Source: a virus. From it: a stretch of DNA of 38,310 bases. The stretch lies in IMG/VR virus record IMGVR_UViG_3300043932_000190; one strand, given 5' to 3'. Under the pieces are notes generated by a model. The model was given only the letters and a program-made list of their open reading frames with translations, did not search any database and had not been told where the DNA came from. Of this stretch, positions 9,970 through 29,706 are shown piece by piece. The stretch's first letter is position 1. Each line of letters opens with the position of its first letter. Position numbers and translations under genes: made by a program.

Positions 9970-10214
9970 ATCCGGTACAAAGAAAGACAATCCGGTACAA
10001 AATGAAATGTACCGGGTGCGGTACCGGATTTTCAACTGATTCCATCCATCTGTATCAGGGAAAAGCACAAAAAAATACCGCAAGTAAGCGGCTTTTATAT
10101 CGAAGAGATGCGGTAATAACGTTTGAAAAATTGGCTCAACTATTTGGATTCAGTAATCGTTAACTTGCTAGCCATCAGCGTTTGACCGGTGTTGTACCGG
10201 ATTGGTACCGGATT
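9970..10214. repeat. attP region with arm-type repeats built on a GTACCGG core
   Basis: atccggtacaa occurs at 9970-9980 and 9990-10000. The inverted form ((t/g)gtaccgg(at)) occurs at 10008-10016, 10020-10029, 10192-10202 and 10203-10213; the last two lie inside the 3' end of int. Confidence 0.6.
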
Positions 10215-11409
10215 TGGTCGAAGAATCGTTTGAATCATCTAAAAGTCCGCCTTGCATCACTCGAAAAACTTGTTGTGCACCCTCTGCAGTTGGACGAGTG
10301 TATTCATTCGTCATGGTGATATTTTTGTGGCCGAGCCAATGCATTACACTCATATCCGGCAGCCCCTTTTCCAAGGCTTGAGTAGCAAAGTAATGCCGCA
10401 ACATGTGGGGACGCACTTCAACACCGCTGGCTTTTGAGACTTTCTTGAAAATTCGGATGTTGACGCGGCCAGGGTGGGGCGGCATGCCAGTTCGTTCGTC
10501 CAAGTAAACAAACGTGTTTTCGTTGCAGACACGGTGAGTTTTCGCGCAGATATCTTTCGAATGTTGCAGCATATCATCAATGTAAACGACAATGCCCCCG
10601 CGAACATAGATTTCCCGTTCAGATGATTCAGTCTTAAGTTTACCACCGTTGGGCTCAGCTAGGGTGCGGCCAACGTAAAAATGGATCCGATAATAATCCC
10701 CGATGTCATCGTGGCCTTTCCGAAACGACCGAAACTGTAAACCAAGGGCCTCAGAGCGCCGTTCCCCGAGCGTGAGCAGATAGAGCATGGTCATATCGTA
10801 CTTTGAAAGGATTCCCTGAGCCGTATGCATGAATTTGTGGAAACCAGCCTGGGAAAGTGATTGGTCCTTTGGTTTTTTGGCTCCTTCAATACCAATTCCA
10901 CGGAGTCTGTTTTTATCAATGATGTCGTTCATTTCCGCAGTGTTCATTACATTTTGCATCACCTGATCGATTGTCCGAATAGTTAGTTTGGCGTACCCGT
11001 CTTCAACTTTTTGATCAATCAACCGCTGATAACCTGCACGGCTGATTTCAGCCATTGGTGTGTTGCCATAGACCGGCCGGAGATGCTTATTGAAATAATG
11101 ATTGTTCTGGAGAACGGTATTTTTCCGCCAACGACCAAGTGCTGTCTTTCTTTCAACCATCTGGTCAAAATATTGTCCGAGCGTCACGCCACGGTGAGTA
11201 ATCGGGCTAACTTGCCCGGTAGCGAGTGATGCCTCAAAATTTTTCAAAACAACATCAGCGTCTCGCCAAGTTAAAAAGCCAGACTTTGTGAACTCGTCGT
11301 TTTTTCCTACACTATTTTGAAATCCCCGACGAATTCCAAATCGCTTACCGCGACGAGTATCGTACTCGTAAACGTTTGGGTGCCTGGGGACCTGTGTCCA
11401 TTTCCGCAT
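10168..11409 (-). CDS. int: Tyrosine integrase
   Basis: C-terminal catalytic motifs (...RRSEALGL..., HMLRHYFATQALEKG, WLGHKNITMTNEYTR). The start is probably ATG 11409 (MRKWTQVPRHPNVYEY); the longer track ORF starts at 11454. Confidence 0.9.
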   Translation of the reverse strand: MRKWTQVPRHPNVYEYDTRRGKRFGIRRGFQNSVGKNDEFTKSGFLTWRDADVVLKNFEASLATGQVSPITHRGVTLGQYFDQMVERKTALGRWRKNTVLQNNHYFNKHLRPVYGNTPMAEISRAGYQRLIDQKVEDGYAKLTIRTIDQVMQNVMNTAEMNDIIDKNRLRGIGIEGAKKPKDQSLSQAGFHKFMHTAQGILSKYDMTMLYLLTLGERRSEALGLQFRSFRKGHDDIGDYYRIHFYVGRTLAEPNGGKLKTESSEREIYVRGGIVVYIDDMLQHSKDICAKTHRVCNENTFVYLDERTGMPPHPGRVNIRIFKKVSKASGVEVRPHMLRHYFATQALEKGLPDMSVMHWLGHKNITMTNEYTRPTAEGAQQVFRVMQGGLLDDSNDSSTKSGTNPVQHRSNADG

Positions 11410-11473
11410 AATCAGTGATCCTTCCATTTGTGTAATTCCAGTAGGCAAATACACACACCAGTTCGACTTAAGT

Positions 11474-25430: not shown

Positions 25431-25883
25431 ATGATGCGGATAGTACAGACATACTGGCGAAGATTAGACCATGAGGCAACAGCGACAAATGCCGAAGCGG
25501 TGTTGATGGACTATCGGCATCGGAAGCATAAGGCCAAGCGGAACGAGGTGACCATTCAGTCCCCACAGATGGACGGGATGCCTAGATCACCAAGCACGGA
25601 AAACGCTCAGGAGAATAAGATTCTGCGAGACCTGGAAGACGGAGAGTTTTGTCAGCAATGTGATCGGGTCATTAGTGCTATTGAGAGCAGTGAGGGGCGC
25701 ACCATCCTGCGGCTCTTGTATACGGTGGGCCGGCCACCCAAGGTGGAATCGATCATGGAGCAGCTTGGAATGCAGTCAACGGCTTATTATCATGCCAGGG
25801 AGGATGCATTGGTGGCATTTGCGGAGTTATGGCCGCCATCACCAAGCGAGCTGCTGGTCTATCGTACCGAAAAACGAGCGTAA
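25431..25883 (+). CDS. ArpU-family late transcriptional regulator (sigma region-4-like)
   Basis: 150 aa. Features: YRHRKHKAKRNEV, ...DGMPRSPS.., C-terminal HTH-like LGMQSTAYYHAREDALVAFAE. It holds the typical position of the last early gene before the packaging module. Confidence 0.7.
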   Translation: MMRIVQTYWRRLDHEATATNAEAVLMDYRHRKHKAKRNEVTIQSPQMDGMPRSPSTENAQENKILRDLEDGEFCQQCDRVISAIESSEGRTILRLLYTVGRPPKVESIMEQLGMQSTAYYHAREDALVAFAELWPPSPSELLVYRTEKRA

Positions 25884-26014
25884 CAAACCCATGAAGAAGT
25901 CGTAAGTAAGTCGTGACACGGGCGTAAGTGTTTCCATCGTATTATGGTATTGTGCCAAAGACGTGTGGGGCTTCCTCCCCGGACCGCACGCATAATTTAC
26001 TGATACCAATTGGT

Positions 26015-26059
26015 AGGACGGAGCAGGTCAATATCCGGGTTCGATTCCCGGTCGTCCTA
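26015..26059 (+). ncRNA. tRNA-like minihelix TL1 (acceptor stem plus canonical T arm only)
   Basis: aggacgg - 13 nt - ccggg ttcgatt cccgg - tcgtcct - a. 7-bp acceptor (one G-U), canonical TTCGATT T-loop, no D or anticodon arms. Confidence 0.45.
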
Positions 26060-26217
26060 TTGCCCACGTTTCCATTAGATGATGTGTTCAAACTAAAAAA
26101 TGGATCGCACTGCTCGACATCGGGTGGTGCGGATAGCAAACATATGCGGTGGGCAAAAATAGTCATGCGAGGACCCATACTGCTACTGCGTACATAGCAA
26201 TATGGCGAGCATACGGC

Positions 26218-26289
26218 TCTGCTGAGCATCTCCAACTGGTGGAGAGTCAGGAAACTGATACGTTGTTGGTTCGACTCCAACCGGCGGAA
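26218..26289 (+). ncRNA. tRNA-like module TL2 (72 nt), with the anticodon arm replaced by a GAAA-capped hairpin
   Basis: Acceptor tctgctg/cggcgga (two G-U pairs). D arm ctcc-aactggt-ggag. Hairpin gtcag-gaaa-ctgat. Variable region acgtt. T arm gttgg-ttcgact-ccaac. Discriminator a. Confidence 0.45.
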
Positions 26290-26366
26290 TTATCCAGTTT
26301 AATAGCTGGATTGTAAGGAAGGTTCGACCGTTCGCAGGCGAAACCTTGTGTGTAAGCCTGTTAGAT

Positions 26367-26468
26367 ATCACTGTGGCGGAATAGGTAGACGCTGGGACAC
26401 GGAGATGATGTGATAAAGACGCGCCGGTGAACGCACATCATGTCAGGTGCAAATCCTGACCAGTGATA
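26367..26468 (+). ncRNA. tRNA-like module TL3 with a class-II (Leu-like) D arm and a long insert hairpin
   Basis: Acceptor atcactg/cagtgat (extendable to 9 bp). tg-gcg-gaataggtaga-cgc closely resembles a tRNA-Leu D arm. 8-bp stem atgatgtg/cacatcat (26405-12/26434-41). T-like arm gtcagg-tgcaaat-cctgac. No 7-nt anticodon loop. Confidence 0.4.
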
Positions 26469-26590
26469 TAGGCGCACCGTCTAGCGGCTTTGCTGGGCCG
26501 ATAAGACGCCAAAGAGAGTACCGGCATGGCCGTGCCGGGAAGGATTGCTTTAGATTCCAGGACTCGGCAGCCATCGCCTGGACAGCAGAT

Positions 26591-26662
26591 GCAGTCGAAG
26601 CTTAATTGCTATTGGATCACCAGCCAAAGGCGGTGTTGCGGGTCCGAATCCCGTCGGCTGTA
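26591..26662 (+). ncRNA. tRNA-like module TL4 (72 nt), non-canonical
   Basis: Acceptor gcagtcg/cggctgt (two G-U pairs). Short D-like arm agc-ttaatt-gct. 4-bp stem ttgg/ccaa with an 8-nt loop. T arm gcggg-tccgaat-cccgt (T-loop has C at position 55). Confidence 0.35.
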
Positions 26663-26734
26663 TAATTGCGGGCAACCGTTTCGGCGGTACCGGGGAGAAT
26701 TCCCCCAGAGCAGAGGACCTCTACACAAGCCTCA

Positions 26735-26807
26735 AGGACGATAGCACTGTTGGAAGTGCGCCGGAAAGACGTCACCGGAGAAACGGGTCCGAATCCCGTG
26801 AGTCCTA
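26735..26807 (+). ncRNA. tRNA-like module TL5 (73 nt), non-canonical
   Basis: Acceptor aggacga/gagtcct (5 of 7 bp; a perfect partner aggactc lies at 26559-65). Perfect D arm gcac-tgttggaa-gtgc. ccgg/ccgg stem with a 10-nt loop. T arm acggg-tccgaat-cccgt. Same 3' trailer (a ttgcccac) as TL1. Confidence 0.4.
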
Positions 26808-26830
26808 TTGCCCACACACATCAGAAAGGA
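26807..26830 (+). repeat. Direct repeat copy A (attgcccacacacatcagaaagga)
   Basis: Matches 26978-26999 apart from one extra CA. It supplies the SD sequence (aaaggag) of the 40-aa ORF. Confidence 0.8.
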
Positions 26831-26840
26831 GACAACATTG

Positions 26841-26963
26841 ATGAAGAAGCGGTTTGCAAAGTTTGTTTTTGAAGTTTTAACTGGGAAAATCCATCTTGTT
26901 GAAAGCAGTCGATCAAACTCACTTGATGGAGTTTCAAGCTTTGACTTTAAAGCCACTCACTAA
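26841..26963 (+). CDS. Small ORF (40 aa), not in the ORF track
   Basis: ATG 26841 lies 8-9 nt after the strong SD sequence gaaaggag. Product MKKRFAKFVFEVLTGKIHLVESSRSNSLDGVSSFDFKATH. AT-richer than its flanks and bracketed by 22-24-nt direct repeats. Confidence 0.45.
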   Translation: MKKRFAKFVFEVLTGKIHLVESSRSNSLDGVSSFDFKATH

Positions 26964-26977
26964 AGCTTAATAACATT

Positions 26978-26999
26978 ATTGCCCACACATCAGAAAGGA
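26978..26999 (+). repeat. Direct repeat copy B (attgcccacacatcagaaagga)
   Basis: See copy A. Its ttgcccac can pair with gtgggca at 27024-27030. Confidence 0.8.
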
Positions 27000-27034
27000 T
27001 GCGAAGACCGCCTGAACTCGGTCGTGGGCATTAC

Positions 27035-27106
27035 CGCCGGGCAGAGCGATGGACGCTTGCGTGCCTCATAAGCACGAGACTGCCGGTTCGATTCCGGCCC
27101 TGGCAA
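27035..27106 (+). tRNA. tRNA with anticodon CAU (Met, fMet or Ile2-type); no encoded CCA
   Basis: Hand-folded cloverleaf: cgccggg ca gagc gatggac gctt g cgtgc cTCATAa gcacg agact gccgg ttcgatt ccggc cctggca a. It has a C1xA72 mismatch, a G10-U25 pair, GG in the D loop, and U33/A37. Confidence 0.75.
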
Positions 27107-27153
27107 TTTGCCCGTAAAAAATAAGCTTAGTTCACTTAATTCACACGGGCAAA
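27107..27153 (+). other. 9-bp inverted repeat (tttgcccgt / acgggcaaa) immediately 3' of the tRNA
   Basis: 27107-15 is perfectly complementary to 27145-53, with a 29-nt loop. It repeats the TTGCCC-trailer/complement pattern seen after TL1 and after repeat copy B. Confidence 0.5.
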
Positions 27154-27215
27154 TGAGTCACCTCAGGATAGTATCTCAGCGCGAGTTGGGGTACTATTTC
27201 TGTGAGGTGACAAAA

Positions 27216-28103
27216 ATGGGATTATATTACACGGCAAAGCTGAACATTAGTGGGAATCTTTTTAGCAATAACCTTCAGGAAATCAAGTTAAAGGCTATTC
27301 CTGAAACTTTAATGAAATTTTCGGACCAACAGTTTGGTGAGAAAATGGTCGTTAAAGAGAGCACTCAGAAAACTGCAAATTCCGTTCGATACAATCGCTG
27401 GATTTTGACAGACATGGAAAAGATCGACGAAGGAATTATTGAAGGAAACTTAACAAAGATATTTCCGAGAGAGGAAATAGTGCTGGAAGGTGTACGAACC
27501 AAAACCACTGTTGAGGACCAAATCCGGACTGCACATTTCTTCTATGTCATAAGGGATGAGTTGCTGGCTTTTCAATCCACGACAGATATTAATTATCAAG
27601 TATTCCCTCGAAAGTTTGAAATACTCATGAAAAAAGCTGATACGGACTTACAAATTGGAGATGTGAGGATTGAGCTTCTCACTAGGATAGACGAATTCAA
27701 ACAGAAACTTTTTTCTCAACCTGTTCGAAGAGTACTATTGAAATTTGTAACGCCAAATGATCCAAAAACAACCGATTCAATTGCTGATATTCTCTTAGGG
27801 AGCCGCGCAAAAAAAGCAGACTTTAAAATGGAGAATTTTACTGATGATGAGGGTTTGCAAGCTAAAGATAGTGATGGACAGCCGGTAAAACTTTTTTCTG
27901 ATTTCTTTCTTCTTCTTGAGCGCGGGTACGGATCTTTAAAAGCATGGGTGGGAAACAGGAACCGACCTGAGGTTATAGAATCAGAAAAATTTCCTGTTAA
28001 GGCAAATATTCGTAGGTCTACTAACAAAACGAAAACCATTGCGGATATTGAAAGCGAAGTGAAAAAGATTGAAAAGCTCAAGTCAAGCAAAAAAGACGAG
28101 TAA
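27216..28103 (+). CDS. Unknown soluble protein (295 aa), gene A of the AT-rich two-gene accessory cassette
   Basis: Start refined to ATG 27216 with gaggtga 7 nt upstream; the track start at 27108 would begin directly after the tRNA, inside the hairpin. Visibly lower G+C than the rest of the phage. No catalytic motif recognised. Lys-rich C-terminal tail. Confidence 0.7.
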   Translation: MGLYYTAKLNISGNLFSNNLQEIKLKAIPETLMKFSDQQFGEKMVVKESTQKTANSVRYNRWILTDMEKIDEGIIEGNLTKIFPREEIVLEGVRTKTTVEDQIRTAHFFYVIRDELLAFQSTTDINYQVFPRKFEILMKKADTDLQIGDVRIELLTRIDEFKQKLFSQPVRRVLLKFVTPNDPKTTDSIADILLGSRAKKADFKMENFTDDEGLQAKDSDGQPVKLFSDFFLLLERGYGSLKAWVGNRNRPEVIESEKFPVKANIRRSTNKTKTIADIESEVKKIEKLKSSKKDE

Positions 28104-28620
28104 GAACGTAATCAAGAGATCAAAGTTTATCCATGGGCTTCTTGCAAACCCTCGTTATTCGATATTTAATTGGAGTTTCTGGACGTCTTTGCTTCTTACA
28201 ATCATTACCTTAATATTCGGCGGGAACACCACTGCATACATTGCTTTAAATTATTTAATGAGACATAGTTTTGATCTGGTTTCAATGTCAGTGGGGGCAA
28301 TTGGAGTTATACTTGCCGCAATTGCTATTTTAGTCGTGATATTCAGTCGACAGGGATTGGCAAGAATAGTTGCAGCTGATGAACAAACGTTTGAAGGATT
28401 CATATTTCCGTATAGACTGTCCGCAACCATTTGGGCAATTTTAGCGGTTTGGTCGCTTTTTGTTCCATTGTTGAATAATGGTTTGAATATTAGCGTCAAG
28501 CTTGCAATTGCTTATGTCTGGTTATTTCTGATTTTATACGCAATGTTGTATGTTCTTTACTTAATTGGTGAAATTATTCAGAACATTCTTTTGTCGGCGG
28601 AAATTGAAAGCAAAAAGTAG
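28069..28620 (+). CDS. Four-TM membrane protein (183 aa), gene B of the cassette
   Basis: TTG start overlapping gene A by 35 nt (possible coupling). Basic N-terminus followed by four hydrophobic helices: WTSLLLTIITLIFGG, SVGAIGVILAAIAILVVIF, ATIWAILAVWSLFVPLL, IAYVWLFLILYAMLYVLYLIG. Confidence 0.7.
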   Translation: MKSSSQAKKTSKNVIKRSKFIHGLLANPRYSIFNWSFWTSLLLTIITLIFGGNTTAYIALNYLMRHSFDLVSMSVGAIGVILAAIAILVVIFSRQGLARIVAADEQTFEGFIFPYRLSATIWAILAVWSLFVPLLNNGLNISVKLAIAYVWLFLILYAMLYVLYLIGEIIQNILLSAEIESKK

Positions 28621-28678
28621 ACTAAAAAGCTTTGTTGTTGCTAAAGACGTCCAAAGGTATCTTTATGACTTTGCACAG

Positions 28679-28710
28679 GCACTCCACCAAGCGGTGAAGT
28701 GCTATTTTTA
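28679..28710 (+). terminator. Rho-independent terminator ending the cassette
   Basis: gcact-c-cacc-aagc-ggtg-a-agtgc hairpin followed by tattttta. Confidence 0.65.
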
Positions 28711-28712
28711 TG

Positions 28713-29058: not shown

Positions 29059-29706
29059 ATGGCCAAAGGGAAGTATCAAGAATGGCAGACACCAGAGCGG
29101 TTGGCATTGCTTGAAGGCTGGGCGCGCGATGGGTTAACTGACGAACAAATAGCCCACAACATCGGCGTTCGTAGAGAAACTTTGTATGCGTGGAAAAAGG
29201 CACATCCTAACATTTCTAACGCCCTAAAGAAAGGCAAGGAAATTGTTGACCAAATGGTCGCTGGCTCGCTGATTAGGCGTGCGCTGGGAATGACAGTGAC
29301 CAATACCACGTATAAGATGGTTCCTCTCCGAGAGGACGTGCTGGAAGCAAGACGAACACGCTGGCGTAATGAATATCAGCTGGATCATCCTGAGTTGACT
29401 CGTAAGCAACTAGTTCAGGCCTCAATTGAGAATGTCCCAACTTATGAAAAAATCCCGATCATTGTTAATGAAAACGAGTTGGCGCCGGATACCTCAGCAC
29501 AAATATTCTGGTTGAAGAATCGGAAGCCTGAGTTATTCCGTGATCAAGCGTTCAAAGGCCTTAATGAAGCGCAGGCTCGCAAGGCCAAAGCCGAAGCGGA
29601 GATTGCTGAAGCCAAGGCCAAACGTGAGACCAGCGAAGACACGAGCAACATCACAATCAACATCAAGCCAATTCAGCAAGGAGGAGACGATGACGGTGCA
29701 AATTAA
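29059..29706 (+). CDS. terS: Terminase small subunit
   Basis: 215 aa. N-terminal HTH-like region (LLEGWARDGLTDEQIAHNIGVRRETLYAWKK). Immediately upstream of, and overlapping, terL. Confidence 0.8.
   Translation: MAKGKYQEWQTPERLALLEGWARDGLTDEQIAHNIGVRRETLYAWKKAHPNISNALKKGKEIVDQMVAGSLIRRALGMTVTNTTYKMVPLREDVLEARRTRWRNEYQLDHPELTRKQLVQASIENVPTYEKIPIIVNENELAPDTSAQIFWLKNRKPELFRDQAFKGLNEAQARKAKAEAEIAEAKAKRETSEDTSNITINIKPIQQGGDDDGAN

Follow-up and report, generated by a model that had tools for sequence, protein, structure and literature searches.

The window analyzed here, 38,310 nucleotides (nt) of DNA from IMG/VR virus record IMGVR_UViG_3300043932_000190, is a temperate siphophage genome (38 kb) in which five tRNA-shaped modules were located on the plus strand of positions 25884–26840, with zero usable anticodon loops among them. 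With high confidence, we regard these modules as part of a conserved non-coding transcription unit that lies between an ArpU-family activator gene and the first late genes of temperate phages. The unit recurs in 106 related loci of Lacticaseibacillus and Schleiferilactobacillus phages, including A2, CL1, and R3.3, and the upper half of its modules (the acceptor stem and T arm) appears from sequence comparison to be under selection and kept by compensatory change. Our preferred reading, to which we give a probability of roughly 0.4, is that RNase P and RNase Z would cut out these modules as upper-half tRNA mimics acting in trans, perhaps as decoys. No published description of the unit was found in a full-text literature search.

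Structures were folded using RNAfold (with z scores for selected elements), covariance scans were run against Rfam, and tRNAs were called using ARAGORN. The permissive Rfam scan (E ≤ 10) was focused on 1.6 kb (25700–27300). Because the 1.2-kb region had no direct DNA match to annotated phages (zero blastn matches among 50,697 phage records), relatives were located by way of the ArpU protein and short motifs; scans with the 19-nt promoter motif described below returned just 8 metagenome and 11 genome matches. The final set of 106 related loci (241 kb) was enlarged by using the frame of the third module and a three-way-junction module. T arms were located with a scanner for a 5-base-pair (bp) stem and a T[TCG]CRANN loop, and modules were discovered via this paired T arm, so that their T stems are paired by ascertainment. 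As a control for how readily modules are called as tRNAs, the identical pipeline was applied to 70 unrelated viral contigs with ordinary tRNA islands.

The five modules of the window are as follows:
26015–26059, plus strand: TL1, a 45-nt minihelix with a 7-bp acceptor stem and a canonical T arm, without D and anticodon arms in its fold.
26218–26289, plus strand: TL2, 72 nt, with all 7 of 7 acceptor positions paired, a canonical T arm, and a fold z score of −2.6.
26367–26468, plus strand: TL3, 102 nt, with a Leu-like class-II D arm, a 7/6 acceptor/T stack, and an 8-bp insert hairpin.
26591–26662, plus strand: TL4, 72 nt, with a 7/7 acceptor, T loop UCCGAAU (C at position 55, C55), and a fold z score of −2.5.
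26735–26807, plus strand: TL5, 73 nt, with T loop UCCGAAU (C55), a good D arm, and a 4-bp stem with a 10-nt loop.

These positions had been given in an earlier note on this DNA, made from the letters alone, and were confirmed by Rfam, relaxed ARAGORN, and RNAfold. The hand folds of that note were also reproduced by RNAfold, namely the TL1 minihelix, the GAAA-capped 5-bp hairpin that stands in TL2 where the anticodon arm would be, the TL3 insert, and the oversized loops of TL4 and TL5. Its statement that all five carry an acceptor stem and a T arm holds generally, with the qualifications that only 5 of 7 acceptor positions are paired in TL5 and that the stack of TL3 is 7/6 (13 bp). The good D arm described for TL5 stands, while that described for TL2 is an atypical 6-bp hairpin. 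In TL4, the D arm is degenerate and the anticodon arm is substituted by a non-canonical short stem with an oversized loop. A 7-bp acceptor combined with a 5-bp T stem and a 7-nt UUCRANN loop was found in TL1 and TL2, and with C55 in TL4; the T loop of TL3 is UGCAAAU, with G at position 55.

A 5-bp anticodon stem with a 7-nt loop and a 3-base anticodon was found in none of TL1–TL5 by ARAGORN or by folding. With default settings, ARAGORN called no ordinary tRNA at the module coordinates, and default ARAGORN and Rfam at the gathering score recovered a sole real tRNA, tRNA-Met(cat) at 27035–27106, which lies outside 25884–26840. Permissive scanning with the Rfam tRNA model (RF00005) matched exactly the spans of TL4 (22.6 bits) and TL2 (18.2 bits), both below the gathering score of 29 and both in local alignments that bypass the anticodon arm, and TL1, TL3, and TL5 gave zero matches to it at E ≤ 10. 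Relaxed ARAGORN produced calls ending at 26289 and 26662, as well as a “tRNA-???” with a 4-base anticodon at exactly the coordinates of TL5 (26735–26807). The mascRNA model (RF01684) aligned to 26015–26058 of TL1 at 22 bits, short of its gathering score of 42.5, which is a likeness of shape only. Across the ~1.2-kb stretch, six T-arm motifs were found on the plus strand, compared to two (plus) and six (minus) in the rest of the window.

The absence of a credible gene from 25884–26840, also proposed in the earlier note, was upheld. Open reading frames (ORFs) overlapping this interval had zero Pfam matches, and a conserved reading frame is ruled out by the large indels and exchanged modules that separate relatives; a hidden protein gene was thus rejected. 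Further candidate identities were rejected as well. Integration-site remnants were discounted since the integrase-adjacent region and the locus have no 11-mer or longer in common, relaxed ARAGORN with introns gave only implausible calls for intron-bearing tRNAs, and a search for antisense cargo against the phage’s own genes yielded nothing above shuffled expectation. Only tRNA-type models of Rfam matched the window and nine related loci, even at E ≤ 10, so that other Rfam families were set aside.

The same non-decoding character was found throughout the relatives. Among 166 unique modules from the 106 loci, ARAGORN made no call for 147, “tRNA-???” calls for 7, and canonical calls for 12; the canonical tRNAs interspersed among the modules are Met, Pro, Ile, and Arg. 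Several of the 12 canonical calls carry A34 anticodons (act, aac), as does an att call in locus L258, which makes them doubtful decoders. In the matched pipeline, canonical tRNAs made up 8/59 modules (14%) here versus 387/447 (87%) in ordinary islands (Fisher P 2.6e-30), and about 76–89% of modules were left uncalled by ARAGORN. Module lengths range from 43 to 163 nt. At one end are bare minihelices (43–58 nt); a 58-nt module of L006 (6519–6576) is a perfect tRNA without its entire anticodon arm (Rfam tRNA 53.7 bits), and modules of L040, L055, and L082 have perfect D and T arms and “anticodon” loops of 4–6 nt. With the anticodon arm lost, shortened, or replaced, these modules cannot decode, and what they retain is a stack of acceptor stem and T arm, often joined by the D-arm elbow.

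Compensatory change was seen in several families. TL3 is a member of the widespread F02 family, whose 3′ frame was found in 60 IMG/VR contigs and which comprises 30 distinct variants of 84–162 nt with a near-invariant frame (5′ frame, ATCRCTG TGGCGGAATAGGTAGACGC; 3′ frame, CATG TCRGGTGCAAATCCYGA C CAGYGAT A) around hypervariable interiors of unrelated hairpins (25–105 nt). The sole variable acceptor pair of F02 (position 4) was complementary in 46/46 contexts (G-C 40, A-T 6). The “GCAACCG” family, which includes the second module of A2, CL1, and R3.3, was aligned over its upper halves only (modules of 54–89 nt) and compared to shuffled (n = 500) and slid controls. All 168 of its 168 pair cells were paired, with 7 of the 12 pairs changed on both sides, and this was matched by 0/500 shuffles and by no slid control. 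A further family, F01b, had 98% of its cells paired and showed compensation at two acceptor pairs. In alignment A3, four 5′ strands were placed by hand on homology grounds, and the MAFFT alignment of the TL1 family (alignment A2) was excluded from pair counts since a gap was misplaced within its acceptor stem.

Covariation in homologous loci, which the earlier note had proposed to look for, was observed in both the acceptor and the T helices. Its argument that selection acts on tRNA shape and not on decoding is borne out by recurrence of the pattern in 106 loci, by the compensatory acceptor and T-arm changes, and by the low fraction of ARAGORN calls. For single modules of the window, homologues are less evenly available. 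TL1 has positional homologues in L005, L018, and L105, where the acceptor strands GCGGCGA/TCGCCGC are fully complementary (those of TL1 are AGGACGG/TCGTCCT), and near-identical copies of TL2 are known from L002, L180, and L185 only.

Modules are also ordered relative to a promoter-like motif. In 52 kb downstream of this motif, 50 T arms were found in the sense orientation, compared to 2 in the reverse complement and 1 in the reversed sequence, and 23 of the 50 had a perfect 7/7 acceptor partner versus 6.2% of random anchors (P ~4e-15). The distance from the motif is +84 to +1150 nt for nearly all modules, and over the 106 loci 258 T-arm motifs were sense and 7 antisense. Each array holds one to six tRNA-derived modules, the first of which is near-universal and is a minimal bare minihelix 75–115 nt from the promoter. 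After the ArpU gene come, in this order, the extended −10 promoter, a 5′ hairpin, the first module, a trailer hairpin, the K-turn-like hairpin, and further modules; an intrinsic terminator usually closes the unit ahead of the late genes. Its non-module parts in the window are as follows:
25431–25883, plus strand: gene of an ArpU-family late (packaging/lysis) transcriptional activator, directly upstream of the unit.
25899–25930, plus strand: direct repeats GTCGTAAGT / GGCGTAAGT with a spacing of 22 nt, read from the sequence.
25940–25958, plus strand: late-promoter-like motif TATTATGGTATTGTGCCAA, with an extended −10 element TGgTATTGT at 25945–25953.
25963–25991, plus strand: 5′-proximal hairpin of the predicted transcript, −13.3 kcal/mol.
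26060–26156, plus strand: trailer structure with closing stem UUGCCCAC/GUGGGCAA, −38.1 kcal/mol, z −5.1.
26165–26212, plus strand: K-turn-like hairpin with C-stem AUGC/GCAU, 3-nt bulge GAG, tandem G.A/A.G, and a CCC/GG stem.
27157–27211, plus strand: very stable hairpin, −34.3 kcal/mol, z −8.4.
28678–28712, plus strand: second conserved terminator type, GCACUCCACC..GGUGAAGUGC followed by UAUUUUUAU, −15.3 kcal/mol.

The product of 25431–25883 scored 50.8 bits against NCBIfam TIGR01637 (cutoff 43.1), which places it in the ArpU family, and matched PHROG 248 “transcriptional activator” (2e-29) and, weakly, Pfam DUF1492. The motif TATTATGGTATTGTGCCAA is the most conserved piece of the region across relatives and anchors ~30 IMG/VR loci, phage CL1, and four genomes (Lacticaseibacillus suibinensis, L. 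nasuensis, Schleiferilactobacillus harbinensis, and S. perolens). R3.3 carries a one-base variant, and A2 and R3.3, which are without the exact motif, were found via ArpU homologues. We interpret 25940–25958 as a putative activator-dependent late promoter, with transcription probably starting near 25960. The direct repeats upstream of it are candidate activator-binding sites; additional copies are present in L001, and other phages have different, phage-specific repeats at the equivalent site upstream of the shared −10 motif. The 5′ hairpin was kept in L001, L002, and L258.

The trailer structure begins at the first base 3′ of the TL1 discriminator and was also kept in L001, L002, and L258. The complementarity of ttgcccac and gtgggcaa that the earlier note had pointed out is thus a real trailer structure, and it is present in the L001 and L002 trailers. 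A K-turn pattern (GC-GAN-GA-YCC...GG-N-GA-GC) was found in 80 of the 106 loci, once per array and on the forward strand only (0 reverse), always between the first and second modules and with co-varying flanking C-stems. This hairpin, which fits the K-turn consensus, may bind an L7Ae-type protein; in Firmicutes, proteins of this type are YbxF/YlxQ. Absent from the earlier note were the wide spread of the unit and three of its parts (promoter, K-turn-like hairpin, and terminator).

Two conserved types of intrinsic terminator occur, one or the other of which was found 5–250 nt past the last module in 57 of 91 unique arrays; 3 of the 91 have a terminator internally. The hairpin at 27157–27211 includes a homologue of a conserved array-end terminator in which the T run is weakened (the consensus scan made no terminator call), and it masks the GAGGUG ribosome-binding site of the gene at 27216; homologues with the full T run are present in L003 and L006 (the L006 ArpU protein is 46% identical). 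The type at 28678–28712 lies directly 3′ of the last module in many relatives and was pushed downstream in the window by a 1.4-kb AT-rich gene insert. In R3.3 (locus L111, 4697–4727) and L258 (4343–4388), a strong terminator is packed against the ribosome-binding site of the next gene (terS or the first late gene) without space for an extra promoter, so that late transcription must read through it. No terminator was found following the array in CL1.

Relatives hold pieces of the region as a mosaic, with module families combined in many orders. The closest IMG/VR relatives of the window (L001/L020) match the S. perolens genome locus (L106) in module layout. Locus L258, with the same ArpU protein and promoter, consists of TL1, the trailer, the K-turn hairpin, one module, and the terminator in ~450 nt, whereas five modules are accompanied in the window by a tRNA, a small ORF, and two orphan genes. 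Judged from these layouts, module turnover is rapid.

The flanks of the modules carry what may be a processing signature. Encoded CCA was found in 0 of 117 unique modules, and T at the first position after the discriminator (+1) in 110 of the 117 (94%), where it was the majority base in 18 of 23 families. Downstream uracils reportedly activate tRNA maturation in B. subtilis (Pellegrini et al. 2012, listed among the references of PMC8943300). The combination of no CCA and T at +1 fits processing of the modules by RNase Z, which would be expected to cut at this position. In B. subtilis and a streptococcus, RNase Z cuts CCA-less precursors right past the discriminator, and the streptococcal trailer starts with U (PMC8549757). 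For the F01 and F03 families and the tRNA-Met of the window, a trailer hairpin starts at +1 or +2 past the discriminator, so that the downstream RNA left by RNase Z would open with a closed helix. A trailer hairpin at +1 was rejected as a general rule, being confined to F01 and F03, absent from F02, and present in 45% versus 33% overall. Since real tRNAs are interspersed, tRNA-processing enzymes must act on the array transcript in any case.

According to our preferred reading, the unit would be strongly transcribed late in infection, host RNase P would cleave the 5′ side of each module, RNase Z would cleave past the discriminator, and the CCA-adding enzyme would complete the modules. Discrete tRNA-shaped RNAs of 43–160 nt would then build up; because a terminator bounds the unit, module output should exceed late mRNA. 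In trans, the modules would engage proteins whose recognition is directed at the tRNA body, elbow, or 3′ end and not at the anticodon. Their purpose would preferably be that of decoys or competitive inhibitors of host tRNA-directed immunity or toxins, with enzymes that attack the acceptor end and anticodon nucleases that dock on the tRNA body as example targets. As a side effect, cleavage of the leader would leave the downstream RNA with a hairpin-capped 5′ end. We favor a decoy role because the protein-recognized half alone is kept, because the terminator would make modules outnumber late mRNA, and because the modules evolve in an arms-race-like manner. Rapid module turnover and hypervariable lower halves are consistent with such a role, which does not explain them in detail. 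There is precedent for single steps: YrlA of Mycobacterium smegmatis, which is tRNA-like but does not decode, is cleaved by RNase P and has CCA added (PMC4201824), and the immune nuclease Cas12a3, which recognizes tRNAs by their acceptor stem, T arm, and CCA tail, cleaves them even when their loops have been removed (PMC12851939).

Several observations count against this reading. Bacterial RNase P prefers U at −1, and U was not enriched there (22/125 modules). No homologues of TL4 and TL5 were found in the collections searched, so the case for these two is made from shape and context; a 16-mer common to their T arms matched 70 unrelated viral contigs and zero related ones. A part of the upper-half conservation is ascertainment, since a paired T arm was what the module search required. 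In several families T-loop position 55 is G or C, possibly altering the elbow. Counter-defense genes are usually early, and the present unit is late; no tRNA-targeting defense was identified in the hosts, no search aimed at it having been made. A terminator wedged at the first late gene suggests a regulatory role in cis equally well, and the decoy idea alone does not account for wholesale replacement of the interior as opposed to its plain deletion.

Among other explanations, the modules may be cis-acting punctuation, in which they serve as RNase P/Z cleavage signals that detach the leader and leave a hairpin-protected late mRNA, with the small RNAs as by-products, on the pattern of plant mitochondrial t-elements or the mascRNA of MALAT1. 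This is unlikely in our estimate. The RNase Z signature, the first module as a near-universal bare minihelix close to the promoter, and the F01 and F03 trailer hairpins would all suit such a role, as would modules located between late cistrons (L006 6519–6576; L001 and L018 at +2535). A single module would suffice for it, however, and up to six from several conserved families are present; the F02 frame is conserved in sequence across genera well beyond the needs of a cleavage signal, trailer hairpins at +1 are only modestly enriched overall and missing from F02, and the conserved K-turn hairpin is left unexplained. That hairpin, the conserved 5′ hairpin, and the promoter-proximal position would fit with a read-through leader, in which the structured RNA or the activator would render polymerase resistant to the closing terminator and to those farther on, or with an attenuator that sets late-gene dosage. 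This possibility has in its favor the strong terminator of L258 and R3.3 (L111), which, without promoter space, separates the unit from terS or the first late gene. We nevertheless consider it rather improbable, as modules with RNase Z signatures would be excised and would free any element tethered to polymerase, CL1 is without a terminator past the array, and the nearest terminator of the window has a weak T run. Module content also varies freely, unlike the fixed put and EAR structures, and no Rfam match to known antitermination RNAs was obtained.

A decaying phage tRNA island, in which defunct tRNA genes remain in place owing to a junk-tolerant leader and to the recombination that T-arm sequences promote, would account for the few canonical tRNAs interspersed (Met, Pro, Ile, Arg), the mosaic layout, the singletons TL4 and TL5 with their degenerate features (the 5/7 acceptor of TL5, C55), and an F02 copy with an internal deletion in L150. 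Decay should affect all arms alike, yet the acceptor and T helices are compensated while interiors diverge completely, and the same families persist across ~100 loci and two host genera. T at +1, outside the tRNA body, is preserved, the modules come with fixed partners of non-tRNA type (K-turn hairpin, trailers, terminator), and callable tRNAs are at 14% rather than the 87% of ordinary islands. This pseudogene explanation is distinctly improbable and, among the rivals, fits the comparative data worst. We regard as very improbable that the modules are tRNA scaffolds, in which the frame ensures processing and stability and variable inserted hairpins are cargo (antisense RNAs, aptamers, or protein decoys). 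The invariant F02 frame around unrelated structured inserts of 25–105 nt does resemble engineered tRNA-scaffold RNAs, but many modules are cargo-free minihelices (43–58 nt), and antisense matches of the window-module interiors to the remainder of the phage did not exceed those of shuffled sequences. The earlier note had offered membership in GOLLD or ROOL, or else a new class. For the former, the niche is alike, being phages and prophages often near tRNA islands (PMC12286853). Zero Rfam matches to GOLLD or ROOL in the window (1.6-kb scan) and nine relatives, at the gathering score or at E ≤ 10, and a modular, variable make-up unlike one conserved fold reduce its probability to next to nothing, and a new class is the better of the two options.

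Several known systems resemble the unit in part. The mascRNA/MEN-beta RNAs (MALAT1, NEAT1; RF01684) and plant mitochondrial t-elements are likewise non-decoding tRNA-shaped modules within a longer transcript whose RNA ends are defined by tRNA-processing enzymes, and TL1-type minihelices score 22–23 bits against RF01684 (gathering score 42.5). They are eukaryotic or organellar single copies, in contrast to the multi-family arrays with a K-turn hairpin, a terminator, and predicted processing described here. YrlA-type Y RNAs (PMC4201824) are also non-decoding mimics of the acceptor, D, and T arms, some of them phage-encoded; they differ in having a Ro60 (Rsr)-binding helix, in adjoining rsr, and in being a single RNA rather than an array behind a late promoter. 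Rfam Y-RNA models gave zero matches in scans of the window and relatives, and no rsr (Ro60) domain was found in the few window proteins scanned, the whole proteome not having been scanned for it. Bacillus cereus tRNA-Other (PMC3399842; PMC5389517) is a comparable Firmicute RNA, a tRNA-derived regulatory pseudo-tRNA with a non-translational cellular effect. Its gene is a lone chromosomal one, neither phage-borne nor arrayed, and its RNA forms a full cloverleaf with an intact lower half.

Ordinary phage tRNA islands are similar as clusters of tRNA-type genes, with true tRNAs among those of the present arrays, and a link to host tRNA-targeting immunity is plausible for both. An altered anticodon loop lets phage tRNAs evade anticodon nucleases (cited in PMC12851939). 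Ordinary and altered-loop phage tRNAs still decode, whereas many modules here are without the whole anticodon arm. GOLLD and ROOL (PMC12286853) are phage or prophage non-coding loci often beside tRNA islands, but they are single large conserved cage-forming folds and not a string of exchangeable small modules. A read-through leader, if that is what the unit is, would resemble lambda pR′-6S RNA-tR′ with Q, the HK022 put RNA, or Bacillus EAR. The lambda and HK022 put units are similarly short non-coding units that run from a late promoter to a terminator requiring read-through; they have no tRNA-like modules, and some phage members of the present group have no terminator.

As tRNA mimics are known as such (mascRNA, t-elements, YrlA, tRNA-Other, and viral tRNA-like structures), what is novel here is that the family is widespread and has an architecture and a genomic logic of its own. 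It is unlikely in our estimate, and we offer it tentatively, that the unit represents a novel class of RNA counter-defense in which bulk upper-half tRNA mimics, excised by host tRNA-processing enzymes from a unit with its own promoter and terminator, would sequester or block immune effectors or toxins that recognize the tRNA body or CCA. tRNAs are a major target of bacterial antiviral immunity, which phages answer with replacement tRNAs; RNAs that keep the protein-gripped part of a tRNA and discard its decoding part would be a different and directly testable answer, and an arms race would then be recorded in the exchange of module families and in the hypervariability of their lower halves. A strong terminator often placed between the late promoter and the packaging genes is a mechanistic puzzle. 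Since the unit is present in long-studied dairy and probiotic phages (A2, CL1, R3.3), strains and phages for experiments exist already. Many prophages of the L. casei group carry the unit unannotated, and genome annotation pipelines overlook or mislabel its modules.

The remaining features of the array and its surroundings are as follows:
26808–26830, plus strand: half copy of a three-way-junction trailer module, a direct repeat of 26979–27000.
26841–26963: small AT-rich ORF insert (40 aa) with an AGGAG ribosome-binding site.
26979–27030, plus strand: three-way-junction trailer module with a GCCCAC/GUGGGC closing stem and two hairpins, −21 kcal/mol, z −3.8.
27035–27106, plus strand: tRNA-Met(cat), the only canonical tRNA of the array (ARAGORN; Rfam tRNA 43.5 bits).
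27108–27152, plus strand: trailer hairpin UUGCCCGU/ACGGGCAA, z −3.8, beginning one base past the tRNA-Met discriminator.
29059: small terminase gene, with the large terminase gene at 29540.
10168–11454, minus strand: integrase gene.

The three-way-junction module was found in 16 IMG/VR contigs as 14 variants, and its first hairpin is compensatory among them (CAUC/GAUG, UUUC/GGAA, CUxCC/GGAAG). The 40-aa ORF, which had zero family matches, is flanked by a 22–24-nt direct repeat (26806–26830 and 26977–27000), as if it had been inserted into a trailer module. The AT-rich insert at 27216–28620 has 38% GC versus ~50% around it and contains two orphan ORFs (295 and 183 aa) with zero matches in Pfam, PHROGs, NCBIfam, and PADLOC; the larger (27216–28100) also had zero matches among PDB sequences. 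Contigs with an identical ArpU protein lack this insert.

The tRNA-Met(cat) has a C1xA72 mismatch, an A11:U24 pair, and C at position 8. A C1xA72 mismatch and A11:U24 are marks of bacterial initiator tRNAs; the anticodon stem is without the three G:C pairs of an initiator. An orthologue of this tRNA (52.8 bits) was found in L002. Within the array, AGGACTC at 26559–26565 perfectly complements the 3′ acceptor strand of TL5 (26800–26806), with which the local 5′ strand pairs at 5/7 positions, and a long-range helix between 26559–26565 and 26800–26806 that encloses TL4 is possible. The T arm CGGGTCCGAATCCCGT with C55 is frequent in ordinary phage tRNAs (L188–L257, 70 unrelated IMG/VR contigs), in which 80 modules had a TCC-type T loop and 65 of these were called as tRNA by ARAGORN. 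As C55 is frequent among ordinary callable tRNAs, it is by itself no mark of a pseudogene.

In the GenBank/RefSeq records of A2, CL1, and R3.3, the locus is unannotated apart from ORF51 of A2 (locus L112, NC_004112; A2p54, 38251–38430), which overlaps the first tRNA-like module and is for this reason possibly no real gene. The second module of A2 (38396–38466), unannotated, scored 45.3 bits against the Rfam tRNA model, above the gathering score, and was called tRNA-Leu(taa) by ARAGORN; its stem is weak, however, its size is that of class I, and an A stands in place of U33. The first module of L. casei-group phages (L110, 3510–3574; L111, 4510–4574) aligned weakly (26–28 bits) to a tRNA-Sec model, in an arrangement with a 9/4 acceptor/T division and a 13-bp stack versus the usual 12.

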